IMG/VR virus record: IMGVR_UViG_3300037067_000914
Reading direction: 5' to 3' (one strand)
DNA length: 20,000 nucleotides
Source of the DNA: an uncultured virus (IMG/VR IMGVR_UViG_3300037067_000914)
Taxonomy: Duplodnaviria > Heunggongvirae > Uroviricota > Caudoviricetes
The notes under the pieces: model-generated
What the model was told of the DNA's origin: nothing
Databases searched by the model: none
What the model saw: the letters and a program-made list of their open reading frames with translations, nothing else
In this document: positions 1 to 20,000 of the stretch, piece after piece
How positions within the stretch are numbered: position 1 is the first letter of the stretch
Layout: each line of letters opens with the position of its first letter
Position numbers and translations under genes: made by a program

Positions 1-72
1 TGTGGGGACTTCGTACAAAAGGACACTATCACGTGGAACCCAGAGACACACGAATGGGATTTAAACCAATAA
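1..72 (+). CDS. 3' end of hypothetical protein (partial)
   Basis: Open frame CGDFVQKDTITWNPETHEWDLNQ ending TAA at 70-72, followed by GGAG and the next start. Confidence 0.5.
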   Translation, partial: CGDFVQKDTITWNPETHEWDLNQ

Positions 73-82
73 TACTGGAGTA

Positions 83-322
83 ATGCTAATGTCTGTCACG
101 GACATGGTATTCTGTAAATACTGTAAGTACCTGGGAGAAGATGACCACAGGGATATAAAGTGTCACTACGTTAATAATAGGCAAAGCAACCCAAGAGCGT
201 GGTACAGCATTGAGGATTATAATAAATTAGTACCTGGTGATCCTGCGGTATTAAATAGGAACAATAACTGCTTTTTCTTCAAGGAACGTGAAAGTGTAAT
301 TTTCTTTAGGAACCTTAAGTAA
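83..322 (+). CDS. small Cys-rich hypothetical phage protein
   Basis: 79-aa ORF; CKYC...C...C pattern; GGAG upstream; fits gene packing. Confidence 0.65.
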   Translation: MLMSVTDMVFCKYCKYLGEDDHRDIKCHYVNNRQSNPRAWYSIEDYNKLVPGDPAVLNRNNNCFFFKERESVIFFRNLK

Positions 323-333
323 CGGAGTATCAA

Positions 334-591
334 ATGTCACTAATGGATCAGTACAATGACCAGATGATAGAGGAATTAGAGGATGAGCTTATTTCTCTGT
401 CTGGTTTTGGGTCATTCAGGATAGAAGCGCAAAAGGCGAAGAGTCCCCGTGACTTCATGAATCTGGTACGGGTTGCTTCAAAAGCTGAGGGGTTGTGTAA
501 GGACGTCATGTTCAAGATACTCCAGTCAGCACACAGTAAGTTGGAAGATGGAGAGGAACCTACTGTACTGGAACCTGTTACCAGAGGATAA
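334..591 (+). CDS. hypothetical protein
   Basis: 85-aa ORF; GGAG SD; stop overlaps next ATG. Confidence 0.7.
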   Translation: MSLMDQYNDQMIEELEDELISLSGFGSFRIEAQKAKSPRDFMNLVRVASKAEGLCKDVMFKILQSAHSKLEDGEEPTVLEPVTRG

Positions 592-890
592 TGCACATGA
601 AGTTTCAGATAGCAACAAAACTTGATGAGCGTGAGGATATTGGCATTACTCCAGAAATGGAGGACATGACAGGTGCTATATTTGACTTCACTGATACCAG
701 CGGGAGTCAAAGGCCACACATTCAGAAAAGCGAACCGAGTTTCATATACATGAATCACTGGTTCTGGCATCCTGATTGGCTTATACCACTGGACGAAGAG
801 GCAATTGAGTTACATAATACAAGCTGTAACATATTGGGCATTAAGAGTAAATACTTCAACAGACAACTGGACTTGTTTAATGGCGACTGA
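591..890 (+). CDS. hypothetical protein with C-terminal QLDLF (beta-clamp-binding-like) motif
   Basis: 99 aa ending RQLDLFNGD; GAGG SD. Confidence 0.75.
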   Translation: MHMKFQIATKLDEREDIGITPEMEDMTGAIFDFTDTSGSQRPHIQKSEPSFIYMNHWFWHPDWLIPLDEEAIELHNTSCNILGIKSKYFNRQLDLFNGD

Positions 891-1089
891 CTATAGAATA
901 CCTGATGGTTATACAACGGCAGGTATTGGTGATATAATCACCAGAGACTTCTTAGTAAAGGTAAGAATTGGCCCTGATACTTGGAGGAAGAGTAGTAAAC
1001 CAGGAAGTCCAGTAACGGAATACGCTTATGGTAGGCTAATTTACATAAAGCCTGTAACAGCTGGTCAATTAGACCTGTTTCATAAGTAA
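880..1089 (+). CDS. hypothetical protein with C-terminal QLDLF motif
   Basis: Likely start ATG 880 (MATDYRIPDG...), overlapping previous gene end; ends GQLDLFHK. Confidence 0.7.
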   Translation: MATDYRIPDGYTTAGIGDIITRDFLVKVRIGPDTWRKSSKPGSPVTEYAYGRLIYIKPVTAGQLDLFHK

Positions 1090-1151
1090 GCGTACTAAGG
1101 GGGAGCAGGGAATTGGTGGGTGGAAACCGCTAAGGCCAAGGAGATAGGCAA

Positions 1152-1271
1152 ATGAGACAAGTGCCGATACCGCAGACAAAGCGACCAAAGGTATGGGGAA
1201 TGCTCATAGCACTCGCCGTACTGCTCACCCTGATCAAGTACATTCAGTCACTGGATAAACTCGTGAGGTAA
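1152..1271 (+). CDS. small single-TM membrane peptide (39 aa)
   Basis: MRQVPIPQTKRPKVWGMLIALAVLLTLIKYIQSLDKLVR; AAGGAG SD at 1138-1143; below ORF-track cutoff. Confidence 0.55.
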   Translation: MRQVPIPQTKRPKVWGMLIALAVLLTLIKYIQSLDKLVR

Positions 1272-1274
1272 TGT

Positions 1275-1415
1275 ATGAGTGATACTTATCACTACGACAA
1301 GAAGGAACAGCACGAGAACCCCAAGAAGGTTAACAAGGGGTTCCGTCACGAATGCAAGTGCAAAAGAGAAGTCAAGTGTGTGAATTGTGTAAGTGAAAAA
1401 CCCATAGGTAAGTAA
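1275..1415 (+). CDS. small Cys-rich hypothetical protein (46 aa)
   Basis: MSDTYHYDKKEQHENPKKVNKGFRHECKCKREVKCVNCVSEKPIGK; GAGGT SD; abuts next ATG. Confidence 0.5.
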   Translation: MSDTYHYDKKEQHENPKKVNKGFRHECKCKREVKCVNCVSEKPIGK

Positions 1416-1697
1416 ATGATACCTGTTGATTCAAGGGTACGATTAATACGCAGGTCTGAACGTGGACCAGAAATACCGGAGGGAAGTACAGGTACGTTAC
1501 TAGTGCACTATAACGCACAAGTAGCAGGAGTGGAGTGGGACCTTCCCGTACCTAACCACGCAGGACATCGACTCTTAATGAATGGCCATATACAAACACG
1601 GCCGGAAAGACCGTGTAAACCTGGACACGGGTATTGGGTCTTCACAAAAGACATTGAGTCAATTAACCAACAGTTAGACCTATTTAACAAGGAGTAA
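1416..1697 (+). CDS. small beta-barrel (SH3/CAP-Gly-like) protein with C-terminal QLDLF motif
   Basis: RVRL...GSTGT...GVEWD...GH...GYWV pattern; similar to 5039-5281; ends QQLDLFNKE. Confidence 0.7.
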   Translation: MIPVDSRVRLIRRSERGPEIPEGSTGTLLVHYNAQVAGVEWDLPVPNHAGHRLLMNGHIQTRPERPCKPGHGYWVFTKDIESINQQLDLFNKE

Positions 1698-1699
1698 TA

Positions 1700-1994
1700 G
1701 CCCACTTCTTCCCTCGTTGTGGAAGGACACATAGCCAAAGGCTCACACTGCCAACCGCCTAGTACCTAATGTCCGAGGTACCTCGGTTGTAGGAAAGAGT
1801 GCTATTCCTATTACCCGAAACTGACGACAGCAGTGAACGGCCAAGCGACAGTAAGTAGCACGTGAGGCTAGTGGTAAGGCGATTCAACGAAGTGCCAATA
1901 ACGTGGATTCCTTCGGGACCTGAAGCGGTACGGCATGGAGTATTCCTTACCGAGGTCATATCCGAGCTTTAAGATGGCCGGGGAAGAGGTGGGT
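1700..1994 (+). ncRNA. candidate ~295-nt structured non-coding RNA
   Basis: No credible + ORF; 13-bp closing stem 1701-1713/1981-1993; nested stems; UUCG tetraloop hairpin; 14-bp palindrome 1773-1786. Confidence 0.6.
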
Positions 1995-2020
1995 ATAGTT
2001 TTAACAATAAAGGATTAAAC

Positions 2021-2212
2021 ATGGGCAGTAAAACTGTAATATGTGATGTGGCTGAGAAATGCAACAATACAGGCTGTGGTCACAGAATCCCACATGAACA
2101 TTGGGGGCCGTGTAACAGTCATTGTAGAACAAGTACAAATGTGGAAAGTTCACGCTGTATACCTTATACAGAACCTAATAGTCAAATGGAGTTGTTCGAT
2201 GAAACCAAATAG
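2021..2212 (+). CDS. small Cys/His-rich protein with C-terminal QMELF motif
   Basis: 63 aa; AAGGA SD; ends SQMELFDETK. Confidence 0.7.
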   Translation: MGSKTVICDVAEKCNNTGCGHRIPHEHWGPCNSHCRTSTNVESSRCIPYTEPNSQMELFDETK

Positions 2213-2516
2213 ATTTAGGTTTAGAGTATGGGGCAAAAGAACCAAAGAACTTGAACTATTGGACGTTGCGTGTTTGTGCTCGTACTTAGACCAGGACGAA
2301 GATTATATTATCATGCAATCCACCGGACTTACCGATAAGAATGGCAAGGAGATATTTGAAGGCGACTTGATAGAAGTCGGATACAGAATGGACTATCTAA
2401 TTACCGTAGAGTGGGAACAAGAGACTGCGAGTTTTAGCGAGTCTGTGTGGCAGTATCCTGATGGAGTTGAAGTAGTTGGTAACATATACGAAAACCCGGA
2501 GTTACTAACCAAATGA
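2199..2516 (+). CDS. YopX-family phage protein
   Basis: FRFRVW, MQSTGLTDKNGKEIFEGDLI and EVVGNIYENPELL signatures; likely start ATG 2199 with GGAG upstream. Confidence 0.9.
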   Translation: MKPNRFRFRVWGKRTKELELLDVACLCSYLDQDEDYIIMQSTGLTDKNGKEIFEGDLIEVGYRMDYLITVEWEQETASFSESVWQYPDGVEVVGNIYENPELLTK

Positions 2517-2740
2517 AACCACGTGTAGGACAACGAGGTGTACTTAGAGGGTACACCACTACGCCAGGTAGCACTCCCATTAACGGCACACCATTCGAAG
2601 TGATTGAAAGTCACGAAAGTACCGTAGGTGCATTCTTTAGAATACGCATAAGTCCCCCGACAATATACGCAGGGGATTACAACGTAACACTGGCTAATGT
2701 TACACTTGAACCAACAGGTCAATTGGACTTGTTTGAATAA
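2513..2740 (+). CDS. hypothetical protein with C-terminal QLDLF motif
   Basis: ATGA-coupled; ends TGQLDLFE. Confidence 0.75.
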   Translation: MKPRVGQRGVLRGYTTTPGSTPINGTPFEVIESHESTVGAFFRIRISPPTIYAGDYNVTLANVTLEPTGQLDLFE

Positions 2741-2757
2741 CCATAAGGTAACATACA

Positions 2758-3009
2758 ATGCGTATTGAAGATGTCAGAGTAGGTCAGATATTGGAGTGGA
2801 CAAAAGGAAGACACACCTCTGATGAGTTTGTTGGGAAAAGGTTTAGAGTGACCAGAATAGAACCACGCACAGCCTCGTTTGGTGACTACAATGTTTACGG
2901 AGTCTTGCTGCAAAATATAGGATATTACAGGGAGGGAGAAGAATACAACTGCGGGTACAAAGATTGCATACCAGTCCCTGAAGTTGGGCAGTTAGACTTA
3001 TTTGAGTAA
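2758..3009 (+). CDS. hypothetical protein (SH3/KOW-like start) with C-terminal QLDLF motif
   Basis: EDVRVGQILEW... ; ends VGQLDLFE; TAAGG SD. Confidence 0.75.
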   Translation: MRIEDVRVGQILEWTKGRHTSDEFVGKRFRVTRIEPRTASFGDYNVYGVLLQNIGYYREGEEYNCGYKDCIPVPEVGQLDLFE

Positions 3010-3031
3010 CAAATTATATACAGGAGTACCC

Positions 3032-3241
3032 ATGCCTCACGTCAGATGTGGACGATGCGATAGACCATGCGACTTGTACTGTATACAAGCAGCACTAGCA
3101 CGATTTATGGAAGAAAACCAGGAAGTATTAGACAAGGCACTACCTGATATGGACAAACCCATAAAGCTTAGTTTTTGTGGGTTTGAGATAATTCTTGACA
3201 CAGACAGTACTTATTGGATAAACGACACGACAGGTGGATGA
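3032..3241 (+). CDS. hypothetical protein
   Basis: ATG 3032 with AGGAG SD (TTG 3002 is an alternative start); CxxCxxxCxxxC cluster. Confidence 0.6.
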   Translation: MPHVRCGRCDRPCDLYCIQAALARFMEENQEVLDKALPDMDKPIKLSFCGFEIILDTDSTYWINDTTGG

Positions 3242-3249
3242 GTAACTAC

Positions 3250-3324
3250 TGCCCCTTAGTTCAATTGGCTGAGAACGTCGGCCCTACATGCCGGATGTTA
3301 TAGGTTCGAGTCCTATAGGGGCAA
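3250..3324 (+). tRNA. tRNA-Val(TAC)-like, atypical (C33, U1-A72, no encoded CCA)
   Basis: Acceptor TGCCCCT/AGGGGCA; D-stem GTTC/GAAC; anticodon stem TCGGC/GCCGG with loop CCTACAT; T-arm ATAGG-TTCGAGT-CCTAT. Confidence 0.75.
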
Positions 3325-3389
3325 CTCAAGGACGTGTACTCTAGTCTTTATTCGTTCATTGAAATCATCACTAATCTAGGAGGCGTCTC

Positions 3390-3788
3390 ATGGAACCTAT
3401 TGTATCCCCGTGGTTTATCTACTGGTTGGGTGTACTGGGAGGATTAGAGGTCTTCCTGCTCGTCCTCTCCGTCGTCACTGCCATCCTTGCGGTAATCTAC
3501 CTTTTATGCAGTGTGGATGACGACACGGACAAGAACAACAGGCACGCGTACGCTAAAAAGAGTAGGGGGTTTCTGATCCTTCTAGCCTTCATAGCCCTTC
3601 TTATGGTGTTAACCCCGTCGAAAGAGACGGTAATCGCCATGTACGCCAGCAGGCACGTCACCAAGAACAGCCTTTCCACAGCGGCGGGAGTTGTATCGAA
3701 GACGGCAGAGGACATCAAGATGGACATAATTGACATTATCAGAGCGTTCACCGAAAAGCCCGACAGTACGAACAACAAGCGTCGTTAA
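3390..3788 (+). CDS. hypothetical membrane protein (2 TM segments)
   Basis: 132 aa; two hydrophobic stretches; AGGAGG SD. Confidence 0.8.
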   Translation: MEPIVSPWFIYWLGVLGGLEVFLLVLSVVTAILAVIYLLCSVDDDTDKNNRHAYAKKSRGFLILLAFIALLMVLTPSKETVIAMYASRHVTKNSLSTAAGVVSKTAEDIKMDIIDIIRAFTEKPDSTNNKRR

Positions 3789-3830
3789 CCAGCGGATGGT
3801 CTCCGTTCAGGTTCGACTCCTGGACGCTGG
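3789..3830 (+). ncRNA. minimal tRNA-like element (acceptor-like stem plus T-arm only)
   Basis: CCAGCG/CGCTGG outer stem enclosing TCAGG-TTCGACT-CCTGG; only ~12 nt replace the D and anticodon arms. Confidence 0.5.
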
Positions 3831-3854
3831 CAACTAATTTGTTAGGAGGTATTT

Positions 3855-4043
3855 GTGAAAGTATTCGAGGTCTCAATAAAGGCAGGCATCGTAGGAATGT
3901 TTCACGAACCACAGAGTAAGTTTCGTGCTAAGTCGGAACAAGAAGCTGTTGATAAGCAGTGGAACAAGTCAGAGGCATTCTACAAAAAGCATGGAATTGA
4001 GAAACATATGCTATTCGCAGAAGAGGTTAAAATAGAAGATTAA
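3855..4043 (+). CDS. hypothetical protein
   Basis: 62 aa; strong AGGAGGT SD before GTG. Confidence 0.7.
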   Translation: MKVFEVSIKAGIVGMFHEPQSKFRAKSEQEAVDKQWNKSEAFYKKHGIEKHMLFAEEVKIED

Positions 4044-4061
4044 CTACTGGTCGAGAGGATT

Positions 4062-4286
4062 ATGGCTACAAAAATGTACCCTATTGGCAGTAAAGGTACA
4101 GTGAATCCAACCACTGTGCCAAATGGCTTATCTGGTAAGCGGTTTGAACTGATAGGCATTGGCGGAGTGCCGCCATTTGTGTACCAAGTCATCATAAAAG
4201 GTTTTCCACATCGTATCAGCGCATGTGCTGAACATCTGATATTTGACAATATCCAAGAGAACACACAACTGGACTTATTCCAATGA
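4062..4286 (+). CDS. hypothetical protein with C-terminal QLDLF motif
   Basis: GAGG SD; ends NTQLDLFQ. Confidence 0.75.
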   Translation: MATKMYPIGSKGTVNPTTVPNGLSGKRFELIGIGGVPPFVYQVIIKGFPHRISACAEHLIFDNIQENTQLDLFQ

Positions 4287-4537
4287 AAGATAAAAGACAC
4301 AGCAAAGCCTATTGGAATGGCCAGTCTGGTAAGAGAGTACTAACCTACCTGTTAGGTGTGGAGTTAAACCGTATAGATGATGTAAAAAGAATCTTCACTT
4401 TTGACAGAGTGTGTAACTGTGAGAGAACCCCAGTACATGGACTAGGATACTTAGACGGAGAAGGAGTAGCAGAATTCATAGACCTGATACACGCTGAACT
4501 GGTGGATGAAGATAGACAATTGGAGTTATTTGAATGA
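4283..4537 (+). CDS. hypothetical protein with C-terminal QLELF motif
   Basis: ATGA-coupled; ends DRQLELFE. Confidence 0.75.
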   Translation: MKDKRHSKAYWNGQSGKRVLTYLLGVELNRIDDVKRIFTFDRVCNCERTPVHGLGYLDGEGVAEFIDLIHAELVDEDRQLELFE

Positions 4538-4761
4538 AAACAGTGGTAGCAGGTAAGACATACAGATGGAGGTATACCCCTTCCCTGGTCAAAGACTTTA
4601 TTGGGCACAAGTGTGTCTCGTTGAGAGGGGGAGACATTTCAGTAGTAGAAGTGCGTCTCTTAGAAAATGTTTTACACTTCCGGGTAGGAGATACTGTATA
4701 CACCAGTACCGATGCCTTAGAAGAATGCGACAATAGCCAACAGCTTGATTTATTTGAATAG
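4534..4761 (+). CDS. hypothetical protein with C-terminal QLDLF motif
   Basis: ATGA-coupled; ends SQQLDLFE. Confidence 0.75.
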   Translation: MKTVVAGKTYRWRYTPSLVKDFIGHKCVSLRGGDISVVEVRLLENVLHFRVGDTVYTSTDALEECDNSQQLDLFE

Positions 4762-4790
4762 GCACAATAATTGCTACAAATCCTGTAACA

Positions 4791-5020
4791 ATGACACCGG
4801 CCCACTACGCTAACACCAGCACATCCTGGTGTGCCTGACACGATCAGGTTAAACGCTTAGAAATGGGGGTGTCGTAATAGGCCAAAGAGCAACCAGCTTT
4901 GGCCGTGCTGGACGTACTACGGAGTCGGCGCATTTAAACGGTGGTGGGCGGTTATGGTGGCGCGCCTGGTGTACTCCAACAGAGGCCCTTGGCACTGTGC
5001 TAATAGGCTCCGTACCGTCC
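4791..5020 (+). ncRNA. candidate structured non-coding RNA or leader
   Basis: Non-coding gap with stems 4791-4798/4868-4875, 4813-4819/4826-4832, 4834-4838/4844-4848, 4880-4887/4897-4904, 4918-4926/5006-5014. Confidence 0.5.
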
Positions 5021-5038
5021 TCACTTTAAGGAGGAAAT

Positions 5039-5281
5039 GTGAAGTATAAAAAGGGGGATAGAGTACAGCTGTATAATACGGAACCAGATGGAGGGCCTGC
5101 GCCAAACAGTAGAGGTACAGTAATAGACGACGATGGTGTCTGTGGTGTATATACAGTAGCCTGGGATGGCTTTACACAAGGACATTCTAATGGTCAACAT
5201 AGTGGGTGGAATGTTCATCACAAATACTTTTACCTGATAAAGGGTAACGCACAACAGTTGGAGTTATTTGAGCAACCTTAG
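5039..5281 (+). CDS. small beta-barrel (SH3/CAP-Gly-like) protein with C-terminal QLELF motif
   Basis: KYKKGDRVQL...RGTVI...VAWDG...GH...GWNV; AAGGAGG SD; ends QQLELFEQP. Confidence 0.75.
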   Translation: MKYKKGDRVQLYNTEPDGGPAPNSRGTVIDDDGVCGVYTVAWDGFTQGHSNGQHSGWNVHHKYFYLIKGNAQQLELFEQP

Positions 5282-5334
5282 ACTTCAATACTTGCATATC
5301 ACATAACCATTCACCAAACACAAGGAGGTCAGAA

Positions 5335-5787
5335 ATGACCAAAGAAGCAATGCGTGAACTCGTCCACAAGCAGATCGTGGCGAGAACCCTGACGGCTCGC
5401 ACCGTCTCCCCGAAGGTCCTGTCCATCGAGAAGGCACTGGCTCCGCTGGGCGACGGGTCCTGTCGGAGTGCCGTGGCCGAGGCCATCGGAGCGTCCATTG
5501 GGGAGAAGATCGAGCCCTCCTCCACCGGCTACCGGATGGGCGTGGCCTTCAAGATCAACCCGGAGTGCAAGGATCAGTACCCCGGAGGGACGATGAAGGG
5601 CCAGGTGTACGTGGCCATCGGGGACAACGTGGCGAAGTCCCGGCGTGAAGGGGGCCGTGAGTGGGTCGGCCTTCCGAAGATGGGCGGAACTCAGCACATG
5701 GTTCCGACCGAAGATGAGATCAAGGGCTACACGGACAATATGTCCGATGATGTCCTTTCCTTCTTCCTGCTCGCCCTGGCGGACTGA
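5335..5787 (+). CDS. hypothetical protein (GC3-rich outlier)
   Basis: 150 aa; AAGGAGGT SD; third codon positions mostly G/C, unlike neighbours. Confidence 0.85.
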   Translation: MTKEAMRELVHKQIVARTLTARTVSPKVLSIEKALAPLGDGSCRSAVAEAIGASIGEKIEPSSTGYRMGVAFKINPECKDQYPGGTMKGQVYVAIGDNVAKSRREGGREWVGLPKMGGTQHMVPTEDEIKGYTDNMSDDVLSFFLLALAD

Positions 5788-5797
5788 GCGTGGCAAA

Positions 5798-5873
5798 CAG
5801 GACTTGATTTAGGCCAGTAGTTGAGTCAGGTAACTGACTTAATTACTCCGGGGTTCGACTCCCCGGAGTCTTG
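5798..5873 (+). ncRNA. tRNA-like element resembling a tmRNA tRNA-like domain
   Basis: Acceptor-like AGGACTT/GAGTCTT; stemless loop GATTTAGGCC; 14-bp hairpin with GTAA tetraloop; T-arm CGGGG-TTCGACT-CCCCG. Confidence 0.55.
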
Positions 5874-5885
5874 CTAAGGTACAAA

Positions 5886-7523
5886 ATGGCAACAACAACG
5901 GAGGTTAGTGTGCCCCCCACCAAACCTATACCCCCTGTGAGACCGGCCCACTTACGTCGATACGTAGTGGAATTCCGGGACGAATGGGGGGCTAAACAAC
6001 AGACCAAGACTGATAATCAGCTTGGTGAACAGATGATTTTGTTCGGAAGCAGGACTCCTTTGTATAGGTGCTTGGAGTGTGGTAAGAAAGTGGTAATGGT
6101 ATGGTCTGCGTGTTCCTCTTGTCCTGAGAAGGATAAGCATAAGCATTGTGACCATTGCACAGTGCACCTTTGTCAGGATTGTAGACGTAATTACATACAG
6201 CCGTGTAAGAGTTGTGGTGGAATGTCTCCCAGACATCTATTCACGAGATTATCGTCAGGAATATTGGTATGTGATTCCTGTTATAAGAATCTGTGTAGCC
6301 CCTGTGAAAGTTGTGGTTCCAAGGAGCTAAGTCAGGAGCTGGTAAACGTCAGAACAAGTACAACTAAGGTCAAGAAGTATTGTAAGAAGTGCGCGTCTCA
6401 ATACAGAACGTGCACTGAATGTAACAACAAAGCTGTTGACGATCAAATTAGTAAATTAGATAATCTGTACGTCTGTTCGAAGTGTTTACCACAGGTATCA
6501 GCTACTTGTGATTGTTGTAAGAAACTGTTCCATAAGAGAAACGCCAAACAAGTAGCAAGAAGTGGCGAGCTGGTACTACTGTGCAATGAGTGCTTTTCCA
6601 CAAAGTATTTTAAATGTGGGCAGTGTGGAAGTATACATCCACTGAGTAAGGAACACTATACAGATCGAATAACAAAGACTCATTACTGCATTCCCTGTTA
6701 TAAACGAGAGTACAACACTTCGATACAAAACTACTCACTTAAACCCATACCTAAGTGGTTTGGTGGTGGAACATCTCTCTTTATGGGGTTTGAGCTTGAG
6801 GTTGAGATGCCACAGAACCCAAGAGGAGACGAGGCAGATCGAGTCATACAGTACCTACACAAGAATGAAATTTGTAAAGAGATGTTGTACTACAAGAGTG
6901 ATGGATCGTTAAGTCATGGTATTGAGGTAATCACACACCCGTTCGTGTTTGAGTGGATGAAGGAACACAAGGAAGTTATAAAGCACATCAATGGTCTAGC
7001 CAATCTAGGATGTGCTTCGTACCATACCCGAACTTGTGGGTTCCACGTTCATATGTCTAAGGAGGCATTTACTAACGCGCAGTTATTTAAGTTTATGAAA
7101 CTCATATACGAGAACCAAGAATTTACAAAGAAGATTTCACAAAGAACTTCGATTGAACGCATGAGTAGTTACGCGTCACTAACGGCTGGAAATCTAATCA
7201 ATAGGGCAAAGCATAAGAACAACCCACGAGAAGAGCGTAGAGGTGCTGTAAATCTGGCCCCTGCTCACACGGTGGAAGTACGAATATTCCAAGGCAACCT
7301 GAATCAGTCACGTATCTGGAAGAACCTGGAGTTCTGCCATGCTTTGTGGGCGTTTTGTAATGAGGTGACGTTCAAGGAAGTTACTGTACCTGTGTTCACT
7401 AAATTCATACAGGCACATAAGATCAAGTACAAAAACCTTGTACGGTTTCTGACCGGAGAGGTGGTTAAAGAGGACGACGAAGAAGAAGAGCCGACACCAG
7501 TAGTCAAAGGAAGGAGACCGTAG
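5886..7523 (+). CDS. putative amidoligase (COOH-NH2 ligase, Amidoligase_2-like) with N-terminal CxxC zinc-ribbon repeats
   Basis: Motifs GFELEVE, KSDGSL, GIEVITHP, CGFHVHMS, TVEVRIFQG; 14 CxxC motifs in the N-terminal half; ATG 5886 with TAAGGT SD. Confidence 0.85.
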   Translation: MATTTEVSVPPTKPIPPVRPAHLRRYVVEFRDEWGAKQQTKTDNQLGEQMILFGSRTPLYRCLECGKKVVMVWSACSSCPEKDKHKHCDHCTVHLCQDCRRNYIQPCKSCGGMSPRHLFTRLSSGILVCDSCYKNLCSPCESCGSKELSQELVNVRTSTTKVKKYCKKCASQYRTCTECNNKAVDDQISKLDNLYVCSKCLPQVSATCDCCKKLFHKRNAKQVARSGELVLLCNECFSTKYFKCGQCGSIHPLSKEHYTDRITKTHYCIPCYKREYNTSIQNYSLKPIPKWFGGGTSLFMGFELEVEMPQNPRGDEADRVIQYLHKNEICKEMLYYKSDGSLSHGIEVITHPFVFEWMKEHKEVIKHINGLANLGCASYHTRTCGFHVHMSKEAFTNAQLFKFMKLIYENQEFTKKISQRTSIERMSSYASLTAGNLINRAKHKNNPREERRGAVNLAPAHTVEVRIFQGNLNQSRIWKNLEFCHALWAFCNEVTFKEVTVPVFTKFIQAHKIKYKNLVRFLTGEVVKEDDEEEEPTPVVKGRRP

Positions 7524-8309
7524 ATGTGTGTAGCTATTGCCATACCCCCTGGCAAGGAGTTCTCGTACAACACGGCAAAGAACTGCTTCGACCGGAACAG
7601 AGATGGAGCCGGGTTTGCGTTCAACAACTTAGAGACTGGTAAAGTAGAGATACATAAGGGATACTTTACCCTTAAGGACTTCTGGAAGTCGTTTATACAA
7701 TACCGTATGCGATACCACCAGTCATCCTTCATGGCACACTTCCGTATCTCAACGCATGGTAAGGTGGATGAACCTAACTGCCACCCATTCCATGTGTATG
7801 AGGACGAGACATTGGCATTCTGCCACAATGGAATCATATCTGCTATGCCAAAAGACGAGGAGAAGAACGACTCCAGAGTATTCATGGAAATAGTATTACA
7901 ACAGTTACCCAGAGGATTCCAAGACAACTTTGCAATGCAGGTACTGTTACACATGGCAGTAACGTCGTCAAAGCTCCTGTTCCTTGACAATACTGGCAGA
8001 TTTTCCTTTGTAAATAAGAAGGATGGGGAGACAAGTAAAGGGGTGTGGTACTCTAACACTTCCTACAAGTCTTACACAGTCACCACAACAACGTCACATA
8101 GTCTCGCAAAAACAAGAAAGTGCCCCAAGTGTAACCAAGGAACAATATGGACAACAAGTGACGATAAAGCAAATATGTGTTACCACTGCCAAAAGAAATA
8201 CCCGACACATTGTAAGACTTGTTCGATTGAGTTGGCACCTGACGAAAGATACGATGGAGAGTGTAGGATTTGTAGACCCAGGTGGGGGAGAGGAACATAT
8301 GGGTATTAA
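7524..8309 (+). CDS. class II (Ntn) glutamine amidotransferase with C-terminal zinc ribbons
   Basis: N-terminal M-C, NRDGAG, HFRISTHG, NCHPF, HNG, DS motifs; four CxxC at C-terminus; AAGGAG SD. Confidence 0.9.
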   Translation: MCVAIAIPPGKEFSYNTAKNCFDRNRDGAGFAFNNLETGKVEIHKGYFTLKDFWKSFIQYRMRYHQSSFMAHFRISTHGKVDEPNCHPFHVYEDETLAFCHNGIISAMPKDEEKNDSRVFMEIVLQQLPRGFQDNFAMQVLLHMAVTSSKLLFLDNTGRFSFVNKKDGETSKGVWYSNTSYKSYTVTTTTSHSLAKTRKCPKCNQGTIWTTSDDKANMCYHCQKKYPTHCKTCSIELAPDERYDGECRICRPRWGRGTYGY

Positions 8310-8496
8310 GATGACATATGAAGGCTTTGGTTATATGGACCAAAGAGTAATACTGGGGCCGTTAGAATATGCACAAGTAAAAGACTATCTCAGCATCTTT
8401 GTACTCTGTGTACCGGTACTCATGGTACGGTTAGTGATCGCTGAACACAACAGAGGTTGGCATCTTGCAATCTTTGGGTTTAACTTCTCAGCGTGA
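8299..8496 (+). CDS. hypothetical protein
   Basis: Likely start ATG 8299 or 8311 inside the longer track ORF; fills the gap after the GATase. Confidence 0.5.
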   Translation: MGIKMTYEGFGYMDQRVILGPLEYAQVKDYLSIFVLCVPVLMVRLVIAEHNRGWHLAIFGFNFSA

Positions 8497-8507
8497 AGGG
8501 GGGAGCA

Positions 8508-8657
8508 GTGGAATTATACGACGAACCCGCCCAGGAAGATGACACAAGGCGAATGGAAATGTTACTAGCAGAACGTGACTTGGAAGAGGAGCTTTGGCAT
8601 ACTTATTGCTGTAATAAGGCTGTAAATAAAGGCGAAGAAAGGGCAAAACAACCTTGA
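8508..8657 (+). CDS. small acidic hypothetical protein (49 aa)
   Basis: GTG after GGGGGAG; MELYDEPAQEDDTRRMEMLLAERDLEEELWHTYCC... Confidence 0.45.
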   Translation: MELYDEPAQEDDTRRMEMLLAERDLEEELWHTYCCNKAVNKGEERAKQP

Positions 8658-8682
8658 CAACAGGCCCTAATTTTCGTAAGTT
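8654..8682 (+). promoter_or_regulatory. sigma70-type promoter upstream of the replication module
   Basis: TTGACA (8654-8659), 17-nt spacer, TAAGTT (8677-8682). Confidence 0.6.
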
Positions 8683-8717
8683 ATACCCGCACCGCACCAC
8701 AAAATCATAGGTGGCAA

Positions 8718-9182
8718 TTGTCCTACACAGTAAAGTTCCGTTGTAAATCATGTGGTAAAGAATTCGAATCCGAGAGGGTGGAAAGCCCCAATGAGCTTGT
8801 AGCTATTATGGCTGGCCGACACCCGCAAATCCAACCCATTATTGGTCATCCTTGTAACGAGAACGACATAGGTATAGGCGAATGTTGTGGCCTTAACCTC
8901 ATACAGGAGAAGGAATTACGCGTGCTAGAGTCTCCCATAGCGGAGACGGGGGAGCACACGCTAACTGGCAAAAGAGGACGGGGGAGGCCAAAAGCTTCTC
9001 CCTCCTCTGCGCCAGCGATTGATCCCACCAGTAATGTACGTGTATTCCTGGAGAACAGGAACATAGATATCCCTAGTAAAACCAAGAAGTTAACTGAGGA
9101 GAGTGTTGCTAACTCCTTAGATATCAACAACTTGGTAGAGAATACCCCTACTGGCCTACCCACTCAAGTAGACTTGTCCTAA
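8718..9182 (+). CDS. putative DNA-binding protein (zinc ribbon plus AT-hook)
   Basis: FRCKSCGKEF...HPC zinc-ribbon-like N-terminus; KRGRGRPK AT-hook; TTG start. Confidence 0.65.
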   Translation: MSYTVKFRCKSCGKEFESERVESPNELVAIMAGRHPQIQPIIGHPCNENDIGIGECCGLNLIQEKELRVLESPIAETGEHTLTGKRGRGRPKASPSSAPAIDPTSNVRVFLENRNIDIPSKTKKLTEESVANSLDINNLVENTPTGLPTQVDLS

Positions 9183-9191
9183 AACACATTT

Positions 9192-9458
9192 ATGACTGAT
9201 AAAAACGCCACTGGCGTAACAGATATCTTTTCTCTGGACGATATCTCACGTATGTTATTGGTTAGTAAACCTAGCCTACAACACCGAGAGGATATTGGCA
9301 TACTGCCTCAGCCAAAGAAACACGAAGACAACTCACCGTATTACACCCACCACGACGCAGTAGTAATCTGTGACATTTTCTTAGATAACGCCTTCTATGA
9401 CAGAGATTTAGATGAGGTTATCTATAGACCCGTACAACAAGGAGTTAAATGCAATTAG
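9192..9458 (+). CDS. MerR-like helix-turn-helix protein
   Basis: FSLDDISRMLLVSKPSLQHREDIGILPQP...PYYTHHD matches the MerR HTH/wing pattern by eye. Confidence 0.6.
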   Translation: MTDKNATGVTDIFSLDDISRMLLVSKPSLQHREDIGILPQPKKHEDNSPYYTHHDAVVICDIFLDNAFYDRDLDEVIYRPVQQGVKCN

Positions 9459-9604
9459 ACTTGTTCTCAAAAGAAGACTCAAAGGTTCTAGCAAAGCGTC
9501 GCAGAGAACTATGGAATGAGATACTAGCCCTATGGAGAAAAGAGCAGGACGAGTTTTTTCTGTATGGAAAGACCCCAGAACGATATCATATAAATCCTAA
9601 ATAG
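9449..9604 (+). CDS. small protein (51 aa) with N-terminal QLDLF motif
   Basis: MQLDLFSKEDSKVLAKRRRELWNEILALWRKEQDEFFLYGKTPERYHINPK; AAGGAG SD at 9439-9444. Confidence 0.65.
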   Translation: MQLDLFSKEDSKVLAKRRRELWNEILALWRKEQDEFFLYGKTPERYHINPK

Positions 9605-9615
9605 TTAGGACATTA

Positions 9616-11001
9616 ATGCCAGACCAGAACCTGACAGACCTGGGCAATTCGGAGAGACTGGTTGCGAATACTAAGGACGATATGCGGTATTGCCCCGCGT
9701 GGCGTTCATGGCTACACTGGGATGGAAGACATTGGGCTACAGACGACAGCACTGCCATCATGGAGAGGGCTAAGTCAGTCATAGCTTATATGCAAGTGGA
9801 AGCCCAGGGTGCTAATAACGAAGAGTACATGAAGTGGGCACAGAGGTCTGAGGATTATCACCATATCACAGCTATGATCAAGCTGTGTTCCCAGACCACG
9901 GGTGTAACTGTATCACCTGAAGATTTTGATACTAACCCCATGCTTCTTAACTGCATTAACGGGGTCGTAGACCTGGAGTCAGGACAGCTGCTCCCCCATG
10001 ACCGCGCGTACATGATGACCCGATTAGTACCGGTCGTGTACAGACGTACTGCAGAAGCACCACGATGGCGTCAATTCATGCACGAAATCATGTCAGGTAA
10101 TGGTGACTTGGTATACTTCTTGCAGAAGGCTCTAGGGTACTCACTAACAGGTAGTACAAGAGAACAGTGTATGTTCATCTTGTATGGGAAAGGGGCTAAT
10201 GGAAAATCTACTTTCATTGAAGCGATACGGAGTGTGCTTGGGGATTATAGTCGTGCTGCTGACCCCATGGTGTTCACCACTCGTAGGCAGGATTCTATCC
10301 GCACTGACCTTATTCGTTTACGTGGCAGTCGCTTTGTATCTGCTGTTGAACTCAACCAAGACGCGAGGGTAGTCCTAGATGCCGCACTCGTTAAACAAAT
10401 GTCAGGAAACGATACACTGTCAGCGAGAATGCTGTTCTCCAACACCTTCTACGAATTCGTGCCCTCTTGGAAAGTATGGTTGTCTACGAATCCACTGCCT
10501 CATATCCCAGGAACAGACCAAGGAATCTGGAGACGAATCAGACTAATTCGATTTGCGGCTAGTTTCGAAGGAGATGATGCTGATAAGAAGATCGACGAGA
10601 AGTTAGCACAGGAGAAGGAAGGTATACTGGCATGGTTAGTGGAAGGATGTATGAGATGGCAAAGGGAAGGACTGGAACCACCGGCATCAGTACAACGGGA
10701 GGTAAACGCATACCGTGAAGAACTTGATCCTTTGGCGGGATTTATACGAGACAAGTGTCTTGTTCATGATGAGGCGATTATACCGAGCACTGAACTTTAT
10801 GAAGCGTATACTGGCTGGTGTCAAGAAGCAAGGGAGAGACCCATGGGAAAACATCTATTCGGGCAGTCTCTTAAACTACGTCCGGGAATTGAGCAGGAGC
10901 GGACAAATACCCAGCGTTTCTGGACTGGCATCTGCCTTGGACGACAGGCAATTAAGAGGGTACATGTACTCTCAGTATCAACCGGGGAGGACGATGCCTA
11001 G
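9616..11001 (+). CDS. P4/D5-family SF3 helicase (phage/plasmid primase C-terminal part; no primase domain)
   Basis: D5_N-like TDLGNSERL, LLNCINGVVDL, Walker A GKGANGKST, STN...GIWRR, C-terminal winged-helix-like region. Confidence 0.9.
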   Translation: MPDQNLTDLGNSERLVANTKDDMRYCPAWRSWLHWDGRHWATDDSTAIMERAKSVIAYMQVEAQGANNEEYMKWAQRSEDYHHITAMIKLCSQTTGVTVSPEDFDTNPMLLNCINGVVDLESGQLLPHDRAYMMTRLVPVVYRRTAEAPRWRQFMHEIMSGNGDLVYFLQKALGYSLTGSTREQCMFILYGKGANGKSTFIEAIRSVLGDYSRAADPMVFTTRRQDSIRTDLIRLRGSRFVSAVELNQDARVVLDAALVKQMSGNDTLSARMLFSNTFYEFVPSWKVWLSTNPLPHIPGTDQGIWRRIRLIRFAASFEGDDADKKIDEKLAQEKEGILAWLVEGCMRWQREGLEPPASVQREVNAYREELDPLAGFIRDKCLVHDEAIIPSTELYEAYTGWCQEARERPMGKHLFGQSLKLRPGIEQERTNTQRFWTGICLGRQAIKRVHVLSVSTGEDDA

Positions 11002-11214
11002 CTCATATACTACATATTCCACTTCGTGGAGTACTACCTCTAACTCTACTGCCACTACATACGAAGGTTATATCAGCCAACTGCAAGATGTTTATACGCG
11101 GCATCGAAGAATGGCACTAGAATCTATAATACTTGATGACCTACAAGAAATGGCCAAACCAGAACCTAAGGGCCCAAGGTAGGGGACCAACTAGACCTAT
11201 TTGAGGGTAAGTGA
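10994..11214 (+). CDS. Ser/Thr-rich small protein; QLDLFEGK tail lies in the -1 frame (frameshift or sequence error)
   Basis: ATG 10994 with GGAGG SD; frame stops at TAG 11180-11182; shifted frame reads KVGDQLDLFEGK to TGA 11212-11214, overlapping the next start. Confidence 0.55.
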
Positions 11215-11477
11215 TGGCAGAGAACTCACTTTATCAAGTAGTATACGGTACCTACAATGGTATAATACTCTATGATAACGATCGTGACATTCTTAAGGTG
11301 ATGACCCCATTTGGGGGTATGGTCATAATGAATGGTATGTCAGTATGGAGAGAGCATCACTACCATTTAGAACAGTGGGCTAACCAAGTACTGGCCTCGA
11401 TGAATCACCCGCCGCATAAATCGTACCAAACCGCGGATCAGGTAGGAAAACAACTGGAATTGGACCTAAATGTTTGA
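11211..11477 (+). CDS. hypothetical protein with C-terminal QLELDL (hexameric clamp-binding-like motif)
   Basis: 88 aa ending GKQLELDLNV. Confidence 0.7.
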   Translation: MMAENSLYQVVYGTYNGIILYDNDRDILKVMTPFGGMVIMNGMSVWREHHYHLEQWANQVLASMNHPPHKSYQTADQVGKQLELDLNV

Positions 11478-11532
11478 TTTTTATGAAATTGACAAACCCT
11501 CAAAATGCCCCTTGTTTTTATTGAAGTTACGA

Positions 11533-11896
11533 GTGACAAGCTGTGACAAAGTTTTTTTGACTTTGTCACTCGATAAGTGCTTGTTTTTACAAGGGCCAGT
11601 GACGCGGTGACGCATTTTCATGTTATTAATTAAATGTGTGTGATGTTTATATATATACCTATACGCGCTCTTATGCAACCAACGTTGCAAAAACTTTGTC
11701 ACTGTCACAAAAGATCACCGGAAACCATAAAAATCAACAACTTACAACGAAGAAAACTTTGTCACTACTTTGTCACTGATGGCCGAAAACCACTTGAAAA
11801 AGACCCAAAATCAGGCAAAAATTGCCTAGTGACGCGAGTGACGGGGGTTTTGAAAAGTTAAAAAATAGGTTTGAAAAAGGCGTGTCACTTTGTCAC
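11533..11896. repeat. GTGAC/GTCAC iteron-like repeat cluster; candidate replication origin
   Basis: 13 GTGAC/GTCAC pentamers, including five ACTTTGTCAC and one inverted GTGACAAAGT; AT-rich core ~11615-11662; downstream of the SF3 helicase. Confidence 0.75.
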
Positions 11897-11931
11897 ACCG
11901 GCAAAATTTGCCTACTTAGAAAGGAGGTGCT

Positions 11932-11982
11932 GTGAAAAAGGGCAGTAAGAAGCCGAAAGGTAAGAAAAGAACTGGTTGTTAA
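11932..11982 (+). CDS. Lys-rich micropeptide (16 aa)
   Basis: MKKGSKKPKGKKRTGC after an AAAGGAGGTG SD. Confidence 0.45.
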   Translation: MKKGSKKPKGKKRTGC

Positions 11983-12006
11983 CTAATCACAAACGGAGGT
12001 AAAAGT

Positions 12007-12717
12007 ATGGGTGTAGGACTACTTAAGACGTTCTCAGGTGGTATGCTGGACAATGTTGTGGCGGAGATTAAGACGGCGAAGTACGCCGAATGGGAGTACC
12101 CCAACTCTACCCAGGGTCCGGTTCCGTGCGCTCTCATCGGGTTTCTCCCCGAGGACTCTGAGGACGTGAAAGAAGAAGCGTATACTCTTGGTGGTACGGT
12201 GGATAACTGGCGAATCTCCGCCGATGGGAAGACAGTGGATAGTCTCCGTACCAAGGAAGGTAAGGAAGCTGCGTTCAGTGAGAAGTCTAAATGGGGCAGG
12301 TTCGTAAAGGCTCTATCCAAGTGTCTTGTCGAACAGAAGCTTCCCACTGACTGGGCTACGGACGATATCACCAGCCTTATCGGACTTAAGGTTAACCTTG
12401 TACAGGTCGAGTCAGGGGGTAAGGGTACAGGTAAGGGAGAAGTGCGTACCATGGCTGTGCCTGACGAGGTGATTTCCCTCCCCGGTAAGGGAGCAACGGC
12501 TACATCCAGCGCCAATTCTGGTCTGGAAGCAAAGGCCGTGGCTATTATTACCGACATCATCGGGGATAGTGGTGCGCCTAGGTCGTCCCTGGCTACCAAA
12601 ATCTTTACCATGATGAAGTCTGACCCTGACAAAAATGGAGTTGCAGGTCTCATTACTAAAGATGCCTTCATGAATAAGAACTTCAATATTCTTGGCGGCA
12701 TTGTGTACAAGAAGTAG
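12007..12717 (+). CDS. hypothetical protein (236 aa; possible DNA replication/recombination accessory)
   Basis: GGAGGT SD; function suggested only by position next to the candidate origin. Confidence 0.8.
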   Translation: MGVGLLKTFSGGMLDNVVAEIKTAKYAEWEYPNSTQGPVPCALIGFLPEDSEDVKEEAYTLGGTVDNWRISADGKTVDSLRTKEGKEAAFSEKSKWGRFVKALSKCLVEQKLPTDWATDDITSLIGLKVNLVQVESGGKGTGKGEVRTMAVPDEVISLPGKGATATSSANSGLEAKAVAIITDIIGDSGAPRSSLATKIFTMMKSDPDKNGVAGLITKDAFMNKNFNILGGIVYKK

Positions 12718-13364: not shown

Positions 13365-14174
13365 ATGAGCAAGAAGGAACGAGAAATTTATTCTTGGTTG
13401 ATATTTATCGCTGTGTTAGTGTTTCTGGCGTGGCCCTTTGTTGTTCACGGCCAGACCTTCACCAAGCCGGACAACGTGCCGAGCGTCACGGTCTACTGGT
13501 CGCACGATAACCAGTCCGGCGAACCAATCACGTTCAGACTGTACGCCAACGGGACTGTTATCTGGAGCGGAGGACAGAAGGAAACGACCCTTGCCCGTTC
13601 CGTATTCGCCGTGGACAATCTCTTATACGTCACGGCCCTTGACAGCGTCCCAAATGAGTCCGAACCGTCACCGACAATAGCCCTGACGTTCACGCCTGTC
13701 GAGGAACCGCCGGACATTCCCGCTGAATACGACACTTTCCCGCTGACTTTCAGCCGGACAAACCTGGAAGGATGGACACGGTACGGAAACGTGATTGTCG
13801 TAACCGGTACGGACGGAGGCGTACAGTTGTTCGGGAAATATTCCAGTAACACAAACAACGTTGCAATGATTTCTGGGAGCGTGGTTTCGGAGAAAGCACA
13901 GGACGTCAAGGTGATCGTTTCTGCAAAAACCAGATACAACGACCCGCTCGAAACCATGCACTTCAGCGTCCAGAATCCAGAGAAATCCGTTCAGCTTAAC
14001 AGTAGGTCGGCGTGGACGGACTATTCTGTCGGCATATTCCATCTTGAACAAGGATTGAATATCCTTCAGGTGCGGTCATATAACACGGAATTTCTTGTCC
14101 GTTCGGTGTCATTGGTTCCGGTGGATGCAGATGTGACGGCTCCGCTTGCTCCGGGTGGATTGGGCGTAAGGTAA
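13365..14174 (+). CDS. secreted/membrane-anchored protein, FN3-like plus beta-sandwich (CBM-like) domain; copy 1
   Basis: Hydrophobic N-terminal signal; FN3-like VYW...FRLY...YVTALDSVPNESEPS; Pro linker; HLEQGLNILQV; DVTAPLAPGGL tail. Confidence 0.75.
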   Translation: MSKKEREIYSWLIFIAVLVFLAWPFVVHGQTFTKPDNVPSVTVYWSHDNQSGEPITFRLYANGTVIWSGGQKETTLARSVFAVDNLLYVTALDSVPNESEPSPTIALTFTPVEEPPDIPAEYDTFPLTFSRTNLEGWTRYGNVIVVTGTDGGVQLFGKYSSNTNNVAMISGSVVSEKAQDVKVIVSAKTRYNDPLETMHFSVQNPEKSVQLNSRSAWTDYSVGIFHLEQGLNILQVRSYNTEFLVRSVSLVPVDADVTAPLAPGGLGVR

Positions 14175-16966: not shown

Positions 16967-16976
16967 NNNNNNNNNN
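16967..16976. other. assembly/scaffold gap (10 N)
   Basis: Run of ten n; interrupts an ORF starting at 16908 (MKQTFEIEHNCKTKFGIST...). Confidence 0.99.
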
Positions 16977-17655: not shown

Positions 17656-17804
17656 ATGAAGAGATTGAAAGACAGATTGAACTTGTCGCAAGACTAAACG
17701 TAGAGGCAGAAGACCCGTCCGATCAATATAGGATCAACTGCGAAATGATAAACTTGATAGAATTAGTTTGCGATAAGATTAACCCCAGAAAGGAAACCAA
17801 ATGA
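17656..17804 (+). pseudogene. small gene with an apparent 1-nt frameshift just after the start
   Basis: ATG 17656 frame stops after 13 codons; shifted frame EIERQIELVARL...INPRKETK runs to TGA 17802-17804, overlapping the next ATG. Confidence 0.45.
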
Positions 17805-18601
17805 AACTCAAACACGCCATTATCATTTCTCTGTCCGTGTGGGCCTTGTCTTTCGTGGCCTATACCGCAGTCAACGCCCAGACCGTCACCTTCCCCGACA
17901 ACACACCGTCCGTGACGGTCTACTGGACACACGACAACCCAAGCGGTGAGCCGATCACGTTCAGGCTGTACGCCAATGGATCGGTGATCTGGAGCGGCCC
18001 ACAGAAAGAGGTTGACATCGCCCGTTCCGTGTTCGCCGTTGACAATCTCCTATACGTCACGGCACTTGACAGCGTTCCGAACGAGTCCGAACCGTCTCCG
18101 ACTCTTGCCGTTAACTTCGTCCCGGTCGAGGAACCGCCAGACATTCCTGCGGAATACGACACTTTCCCACTGATTTTCAGCCGGACTAATCTTGAGGGAT
18201 GGCAGAGGTACGGGAATGTTTTCGTCGTAACCGGCGCGGACGGAGGGGTTCAGCTTTATGGGAAATATTCAAGTAATACGAACAACGTGGCAATGATTTC
18301 CGGAAGCGTAGTTTCAGAGAAAGCACAGGACGTCAAGGTGATCGTTTCTGCAAAAACCCGCTACAACGACCCGCTCGAAACCATGCACTTTTCCGTAAAC
18401 AACCCCGAGAAATCCATTCAGCTTTCAGGCCGGTCGGTGTGGCGGGACTATGATGTCGGGACGTTCCAGATCGAGCAGGGCCAGAATATCGTACAAGTGC
18501 GGTCATATAACACGGAATTTCTTGTCCGCTCGGTGTCGCTGATTCCCGCCGATGCGGACGTTACGGCTCCGCTTGCGCCGGGCGGATTGGGAGTCAGGTA
18601 A
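17801..18601 (+). CDS. secreted FN3-like plus beta-sandwich protein; copy 2
   Basis: Signal peptide ending AVNA|Q; mature 240 aa differ from copy 1 at about 33 positions by manual count. Confidence 0.8.
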   Translation: MKLKHAIIISLSVWALSFVAYTAVNAQTVTFPDNTPSVTVYWTHDNPSGEPITFRLYANGSVIWSGPQKEVDIARSVFAVDNLLYVTALDSVPNESEPSPTLAVNFVPVEEPPDIPAEYDTFPLIFSRTNLEGWQRYGNVFVVTGADGGVQLYGKYSSNTNNVAMISGSVVSEKAQDVKVIVSAKTRYNDPLETMHFSVNNPEKSIQLSGRSVWRDYDVGTFQIEQGQNIVQVRSYNTEFLVRSVSLIPADADVTAPLAPGGLGVR

Positions 18602-19839: not shown

Positions 19840-20000
19840 TTCTGAAAACCCCATTCGGCTACATCGACCTACTGCACACATGGGAGGGCTGGACGCTGAT
19901 CGGCGCGGTCCTCATGGCCCTCGCCGTCCTCGCCTGGTGGATGGAGTGGGGGAAGGTGAAGTGCGACCGCTGTTACGGTGATGGGTCGTTTCCGAATTAT
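19836..20000 (+). CDS. membrane-anchored protein with CxxCxGxG motif (3'-partial)
   Basis: MILKTPFG...LIGAVLMALAVLAWW...CDRCYGDG; ATGA-coupled; runs off the window. Confidence 0.6.
   Translation, partial: MILKTPFGYIDLLHTWEGWTLIGAVLMALAVLAWWMEWGKVKCDRCYGDGSFPNY

Follow-up and report, generated by a model that had tools for sequence, protein, structure and literature searches.

Small proteins of an uncultured phage share a terminal peptide resembling the bacterial sliding clamp-binding motif

What can be the use of one and the same short peptide at the ends of many small proteins that otherwise have hardly anything in common? This question is raised by a locus of the uncultured virus IMGVR_UViG_3300037067_000914 (Caudoviricetes), from which we have analyzed a stretch of 20,000 nucleotides (the window hereafter). 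A first-pass annotation, made from the DNA letters alone, had pointed to a block at positions 591-5281 in which ten small and mostly unrelated proteins end in QLDLF or a close variant, and had taken this ending for a docking tag directed to the bacterial beta sliding clamp, DnaN. Our analysis indicates that these tails resemble the classical clamp clients in motif, in position and in predicted docking site.

We have scanned the window in six frames for the pattern Q[LM][DES]LF and found 12 matches, all of them on the plus strand: nine QLDLF, two QLELF and one QMELF. Ten open reading frames (ORFs) of the plus strand, coding for 63 to 99 amino acids, carry the motif in frame and one to four residues from the stop codon (t1 to t10 in Table 1), and all the motif starts listed by the first-pass annotation (864 to 5255) were found in frame at the ends of these ORFs. 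Three more copies appeared beyond the ten: an N-terminal MQLDLF at 9452, where the motif takes residues 2-6 of protein n, a QLDLF at 11188 that is out of frame by one base in the window (x), and a hexamer-type QLELDL at 11451 (y). All 12 matches to the pattern sit at protein ends, counting that of x with its frame displacement. In order to judge these numbers, 300 mononucleotide shuffles of the window were scanned in the same way. They gave a mean of 0.09 matches, none of them at the C-terminus of an open frame, so that the enrichment over a shuffled null proposed earlier is borne out on the window. The strict motif was also absent from five control stretches: two phage records containing a homolog of an amidoligase encoded in the window (one of 45.4 kb taken whole, and 45.1 kb of another of 65.1 kb), the whole 39.7-kb phage that has the nearest helicase, and two unrelated loci of 20 kb. 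Within the block 591-5281 the tail is found on 10 of about 15 plausible genes. The motif is directly followed by E, D, N, Q, H or S. The least certain gene of the ten is t4, the exact product of which was not in the protein collection.

Table 1. Genes with a terminal motif, and two neighboring genes, in the window (aa, amino acids; motif positions are those of the DNA).
Gene	Position	Strand	Product	Terminal sequence	Motif	Remarks
t1	597..890	+	97 aa (99 aa from ATG 591)	NRQLDLFNGD	864-878	gene-caller form has 97 aa
t2	880..1089	+	69 aa	AGQLDLFHK	1066-1080	called as 69 aa; start falls within tail codons of t1
t3	1416..1697	+	93 aa	NQQLDLFNKE	1671-1685	
t4	2021..2212	+	63 aa, Cys/His-rich ORF	NSQMELFDETK	2183-2197	overlaps start of YopX gene (5' extension of YopX frame) by 14 nt
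t5	2513..2740	+	75 aa	TGQLDLFE	2720-2734	
t6	2758..3009	+	83 aa	VGQLDLFE	2989-3003	
t7	4062..4286	+	74 aa	NTQLDLFQ	4266-4280	stop overlaps start of t8 (ATGA)
t8	4283..4537	+	84 aa	DRQLELFE	4517-4531	stop overlaps start of t9
t9	4534..4761	+	75 aa	SQQLDLFE	4741-4755	
t10	5039..5281	+	80 aa, SH3-like (DUF4314-like)	AQQLELFEQP	5255-5269	
n	9449..9604	+	51 aa, basic	MQLDLF (N-terminal)	9452-9466	called as gene; AAGGAG 5 nt before ATG; directly upstream of primase-helicase gene; found on 6 contigs
x	10994..11214	+	62-aa ORF (10994-11182)	GPKVGDQLDLFEGK-stop, one base out of frame	11188-11202	stop 11212-11214; GGG and CCC runs at junction
y	11214..11477	+	87 aa	GKQLELDLNV	11451-11468	candidate hexamer-type motif (QLxLxL)
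YopX gene	2199-2516					
D5_N/P4-type helicase	9616..11001	+	461 aa, no primase domain			only replication enzyme recognised in window

Are the tails alike because the DNA is repeated or because the peptide matters? The 12 fifteen-base versions of the motif are all distinct, with 1 to 7 differences in 15 nt (mean 3.6). Variation is confined to seven of the 15 columns, each of them a third codon position or the first position of a leucine codon, and the only residue changes are L to M and D to E. Besides, a direct-repeat search gave four families, none of them covering the tails. Since nearly all the differences among the 12 DNA versions are synonymous, the tail is selected as a peptide, in agreement with what had been proposed from the codons of the ten genes, and a DNA repeat is ruled out as explanation by the repeat search together with the synonymous-site variation.

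The same data bear on the view that the tails have no binding role at all, and would be a degradation signal or else a DNA or RNA element for translational coupling or for cassette recombination at the gene junctions. Several tails do abut or overlap the next start codon, and in the QLELF versions the letters TTGGAG contain a GGAG that lies some 8 nt upstream of the next ATG. In one run the differences between two haplotypes stop at 11181, and the next 66 nt, including the tail of x, are identical. However, most tails have GAC and hence no GGAG, no gene starts at the tails of t3, t4, t6, t9 and t10, and homologous recombination needs more than 15 nt at about 76% identity. Nor was any known degron of such form found, in a search that was not systematic. 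With all 12 DNA versions different, and different at synonymous sites, we regard this view as very improbable.

The bodies to which the tails are attached have been compared without them. By blastp and single-sequence hhalign there was no pairwise similarity, a weak match between t5 and t6 being the sole exception, so that the description of the bodies as mostly unrelated holds at sequence level. None of the ten bodies belongs to a Pfam, PHROGs or NCBIfam family at the thresholds used (the NCBIfam scan of 20 ORFs gave 0 families). The body of t10 reached 15.2 bits against DUF4314 (E 0.021), below the Pfam cutoff of 27, and the other nine had no match. There are weak hints that a small beta-barrel of SH3-like fold may be common to several bodies: a homolog of t3 matched SH3_12 with E 0.0048, and t1, the Atlas model of which has a pTM of 0.71, gave sub-threshold leads that include SH3-like families. 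The single-sequence AF2 model of t8 (pLDDT 43) was too poor to use.

Homologs were scarce. A search of 5.8 billion proteins gave, among its candidates, a single homolog of t3: P0122, a protein of 96 aa with 47% identity (BLASTP). It keeps the tail as QLDLFQ; its body and flanks differ from those of t3, including an insertion of 11 residues, and many positions are invariant. An exhaustive profile-free search with t10 retrieved six relatives, two small and four large. The large ones are multi-SH3/DUF4314 repeat proteins, and two of them (P0124 and P0128) pass the DUF4314 threshold. The two small ones (P0126 and P0127) end differently from t10, with a basic tail in one case and a short neutral tail in the other. 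Because the single t3 homolog keeps the tail and the two small homologs of the t10 body are without it, the tail is best described, as judged from these alignments, as a movable module. In numbers, the tail is kept in 1 of 1 homolog of t3 and in 0 of 2 small homologs of the t10 body. A variant of y at the 90% level (P0140) also keeps its tail. A word-indexed search of the 5.8 billion proteins with t6 found only t6 itself, and t1, t8 and t9 had no tblastn match in GenBank phages; for t2, t4, t5 and t7 the comparison covered the family libraries only.

Natural variation of the block tells how the tails behave among strains. Over 400-11600 the window was compared with Logan contigs from four sequencing runs, which belong to three studies (groundwater, landfill and lagoon). 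In run X1, a contig of 292 nt (depth 9.09, 40 other letters) has one extra base behind 11170 and co-occurs with a window-like contig of depth 9.8. In our reading the extra base would put x in frame into VGDQLDLFEGK-stop, an eleventh C-terminal tag, and the haplotype of the window would either have lost the tail of x or have been mis-assembled. The two X1 haplotypes have 37 differences in 164 nt (11018-11181) followed by the 66 identical nt mentioned above, and this hypervariable segment has the look of an allelic cassette of x, the tail of x marking a recombination boundary. Upstream of the t3 start, the lagoon run X3 has a sequence other than that of the window, ending in 17 letters that encode QLDLF. 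If read in phase with the t3 start codon, one more residue and a stop overlapping the start would follow. In X3 and X4, both lagoon runs of one sample, 3802-4062 is replaced by 57 other letters; in the window this segment contains an untagged ORF (3855-4043, 62 aa). The tail of y has two strain differences, at 11453 and 11466, that we read as synonymous. A JGI contig of 3,024 nt proved to be the same phage, with the same six tags, and two other candidates for related loci (L002 and L003) were discarded as spurious short matches with no tags. As the strain contigs swap sequence around the tags, cassettes turn over in this block while the tag is retained. The tagged proteins are at least eleven, and thirteen with n and y.

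Can such tails dock on a clamp? The consensus used here for clamp-binding motifs is QL[S/D]LF, in looser form Q-aliphatic-x-L/M-F, or else the hexamer QLxLxL. It comes from a review of 2024, PMC11139829, where QLDLF is given as the strongest clamp-binding pentapeptide in several studies. The tails match this consensus at all five positions, which agrees with the earlier recognition of QL[SD]LF as the beta-clamp motif. The same review indicates that the residues following clamp motifs are mostly negatively charged or a free carboxylate, and that a phage-display peptide of hexamer type, LQLELDF, binds the clamp with low micromolar affinity.

Co-folding of tail and DnaN, suggested as a check in the first-pass annotation, was carried out with t3 and the Escherichia coli clamp, and placed the t3 tail in the clamp cleft. 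The score was 0.73 (0.71, 0.76 and 0.73 in the separate runs), and the best of three controls gave 0.01. The runs agreed in at least 97% of the contacts, with a partner pLDDT of at least 83. Among solved complexes 116 of 157 reach the mark applied, and among mismatched pairs 2 of 215; these counts are only rough here, given that our own two-row alignment of t3 was used. On the side of t3, the predicted contacts involve residue 7 and residues 82-90 (QLDLF being 86-90). On that of the clamp, they involve residues 172, 174-177, 242, 247, 275, 277-278, 280, 320, 344, 346, 360 and 362-366, which we take to be the known client cleft. The idea of a shared clamp-docking tag is thus upheld in what concerns the motif, the selection on the peptide, its modularity and the predicted cleft docking of t3; the binding itself and the identity of the partner clamp stay at the level of prediction. 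It seems to us probable that the tails do dock on a clamp of bacterial type, whatever the purpose.

The explanation that we favor is that the tagged small proteins are tethered to a bacterial-type sliding clamp, and that each body has its own job there. As a whole, we consider it about evenly balanced between being right and being wrong. According to this explanation, a packed block of early type, with all genes on the same strand and many stop/start overlaps, would make at least eleven different small folded proteins, each presenting QL[D/E]LF at a free end and usually an acidic or polar residue after it. The pentapeptide would insert into the hydrophobic cleft of a bacterial-type beta clamp, and the partner would most likely be the DnaN of the host, because the window encodes a helicase and no polymerase or clamp. 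Clamps are loaded nowhere else than at primed DNA and are left behind on the new DNA, so that the tag would concentrate the proteins on replicating DNA. Each body would act there on the DNA or on a host or phage protein, and jointly the tagged proteins would compete with the clamp clients of the host. The set would be changeable, strains swapping cassettes while the tag persists. Here we infer the host clamp as partner, the tethering as purpose and the early expression.

Several points weigh against this explanation. That each body has its own job is an assumption, because most bodies have no known function or relatives. The small t10 relatives P0126 and P0127 share the barrel but have no tail, so that bodies can work without it, at least in these two homologs. 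If a host polymerase replicates the element, the latter could impede its own replication by making ten or more proteins that compete strongly for the cleft. The co-folding covers one of the ten proteins (t3), with E. coli DnaN as a stand-in for the host clamp, and its passing the mark indicates likeness to known clients that may reflect memory of solved clamp-peptide complexes. Finally, the element extends at least 19.7 kb upstream of the window and also beyond position 20000 (one contig with these genes has 66,288 nt), and may encode its own partner.

A clamp-binding tail does not necessarily mean tethering. The proteins could be pure clamp plugs, redundant with each other, that fill the cleft and shut host replication, repair or RIDA, their bodies being stable carriers free to vary. 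Staphylococcus phage Twort ORF168 and G1 ORF240 reportedly bind DnaN and stop DNA synthesis. The motif is that of an optimal binder (PMC11139829), overproduced MuC of phage Mu is toxic through its clamp motif (bioRxiv 2025.01.04.631326), and the bodies, free of sequence constraint, are exchanged from strain to strain. Yet one plug would be enough, and at least ten distinct folded bodies are kept. Some of these look like real folds, as judged by the pTM of the t1 model given above and by t3, which folds at a pLDDT of at least 83. The t3 body is moreover 47% identical to its homolog with many invariant positions, and the element probably needs the clamp itself. We deem the plugs unlikely, and tethering is still the explanation that we prefer.

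The tails could also be addressed to something other than a clamp: an amidoligase and Ntn-amidotransferase pair (5871-8309) that would act on them, the P4-type helicase, or a capsid for which they would be a cargo-loading signal. The genes for Amidoligase_2 (E 3.8e-9) and GATase_4 (E 1.5e-6) directly follow the array, and the last residue is Glu in five of the ten tails and Gln in another. Such endings call to mind Pup and its ligase. The helicase gene has a tagged gene on either side, and the rest of the element could encode a dedicated reader. On the contrary, the last residues of t1 to t10 (D, K, E, K, E, E, Q, E, E and P) are not conserved, the motif lies at one to four residues from the end and once at the N-terminus, and the two phages with amidoligase homologs have 0 such tails in 45.4 kb and 45.1 kb, a small sample. 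The tail fits the clamp consensus at five of five positions, and the tagged genes are grouped with replication genes and not with virion genes. A Pup-like modifier in particular was discarded, an invariant C-terminal Glu or Gln being absent from the ten proteins. All things considered, a partner other than the clamp appears quite improbable to us.

Both proteins of this pair deserve a description of their own. The first (5871-7523) has 550 aa, with a long CxxC-rich N-terminal region and the Amidoligase_2 domain at the C-terminus. The second (7524-8309, 261 aa) comes directly after it, starts with MC and has a Cys-rich C-terminal part besides the GATase_4 match. Distant homologs are found in Marvin-type Mycobacterium phages and in an uncultured podovirus.

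As for the window as a whole, its genes are all on one strand and it looks like the early/replication region of a phage or phage-like element, a picture that fits the PHROG matches and the viral Atlas neighbors. Its megablast comparison with GenBank phages gave no match, no copy of it turned up among the JGI metagenome contigs (by an exact pattern of 50 nt) or in viral_contigs, and a scan of 1-12000 for promoters and terminators gave nothing above shuffles. The helicase matched Pfam D5_N (E 2.4e-35) and the PHROG DNA primase (E 3e-129), with 37% in the best GenBank phage match. Among the 30 larger ORFs of the window no polymerase or clamp family was detected with Pfam and PHROG, which fits a dependence on the host replisome. 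The ORF 12007-12717 was considered as a possible phage clamp: Atlas gave only viral hypothetical clusters, the nearest Pfam was DUF669 (score 0.75), and the single-sequence AF2 model (pLDDT 31) was too poor to use, so that the data speak neither for nor against it.

The nearest GenBank relative of the window helicase is Bacillus phage rho14. Its primase gene (31119-33539) has a QLNLF at 33450-33464, in a C-terminal extension and about 24 residues before the stop, and the helicase of the window has no such motif at the aligned place. The rho14 motif may be a clamp contact of a replication module that the element of the window places on n and x.

Other features were observed in and around the block. 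Just before the array, 334-591 encodes a protein of 85 aa with a sub-threshold match to Bac_DNA_binding (HU/IHF; E 0.002; 18.8 bits, the cutoff being 22.4). Halfway through the tagged block, 3390-3788 codes for 132 aa with hydrophobic N-terminal segments and matches phrog_3878, of unknown function (E 1.8e-13). Further downstream there is a duplicated block (13365-14174 and 17801-18601) coding for paralogous proteins of 266-269 aa with signal-peptide-like N-termini, at 79% nucleotide identity over 300 nt. Two repeat pairs, 14817-14963/18829-18996 and 15136-15191/19784-19839, make different downstream ORFs end in RIIEALKKEG and NPPFEAGV. Here the shared ends come from repeated DNA, in which they differ from the QLDLF tails. 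At 16967-16976 there is a stretch of 10 N, an assembly gap, which falls inside ORFs on both strands.

What would it mean if the tails are what they seem? The clamp pentapeptide is familiar from enzymes of replication and repair and from a handful of individual phage proteins. If tethering is true, the sliding clamp would be a general address for phage early proteins, beyond its part as processivity factor. One can go further and imagine a swappable library of clamp-tethered mini-effectors, in which at least 12 unrelated domains would use the host clamp as an address on fresh DNA; this extension we advance only tentatively. Such mini-effectors might shield the nascent phage DNA from restriction, mismatch repair and other defences, or might displace, one after another, the clamp clients of the host. 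To become functional, a new cassette would simply have to acquire a tag of five residues, and the tag would amount to a modular signal for targeting the replisome, with a logic like that of secretion or capsid-targeting signals. Proteins of this sort seldom have a function that can be put to the test; the orphan small proteins of this phage gain a simple first hypothesis, which is clamp binding dependent on the tail. Being mounted on folded carriers, the tails are natural and strong candidate ligands of the clamp, of interest for clamp-directed inhibitors. Should the tag be common in phages, many orphan phage genes could be given a cellular location by scanning their products for clamp motifs at the ends.

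It remains to compare the array with known systems. Among the bacterial clamp clients, Pol II has QLGLF, Pol IV QLVLGL, UmuC QLNLF and Hda an N-terminal QLSLPL. The tails of the window share with them the same pentapeptide, in its optimal form, a free terminus, an acidic or polar next residue and, by prediction, the same cleft. The terminal position is maintained throughout, at no more than four residues from the stop in the ten ORFs and at the very beginning of n. These bacterial clients, in contrast, are replication or repair enzymes or regulators, with one motif per protein family, whereas the window has at least eleven small proteins of no known family within about 5 kb of one mobile element, subject to cassette turnover.

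Phages offer closer precedents. Of phage Mu, bioRxiv 2025.01.04.631326 states that MuC needs its N-terminal QHDLF for the clamp interaction and for late transcription, and PMC9690074 describes the use of the T4 clamp gp45 by T4 gp33 and gp55. In these cases a terminal clamp peptide couples a phage function to DNA-loaded clamps, as the tails here may do, and protein n resembles MuC in the N-terminal placement of its motif. They differ in that each phage has just one or two of them, which are defined transcription factors. The window proteins had no similarity to Mor/MuC or to other families in Pfam, PHROGs and NCBIfam, and a role in transcription is not indicated. Twort ORF168 and G1 ORF240 are likewise small phage early proteins, said to have an unknown fold and to target the host DnaN. 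They are single proteins, and we know of no consensus QLDLF tail described for either. No description of an array of small proteins tagged with a clamp motif in a phage was found in the literature covered, which left most subscription journals outside. What sets the present case apart from the known ones is the number of carriers, their being tiny proteins without known family, and their turnover.

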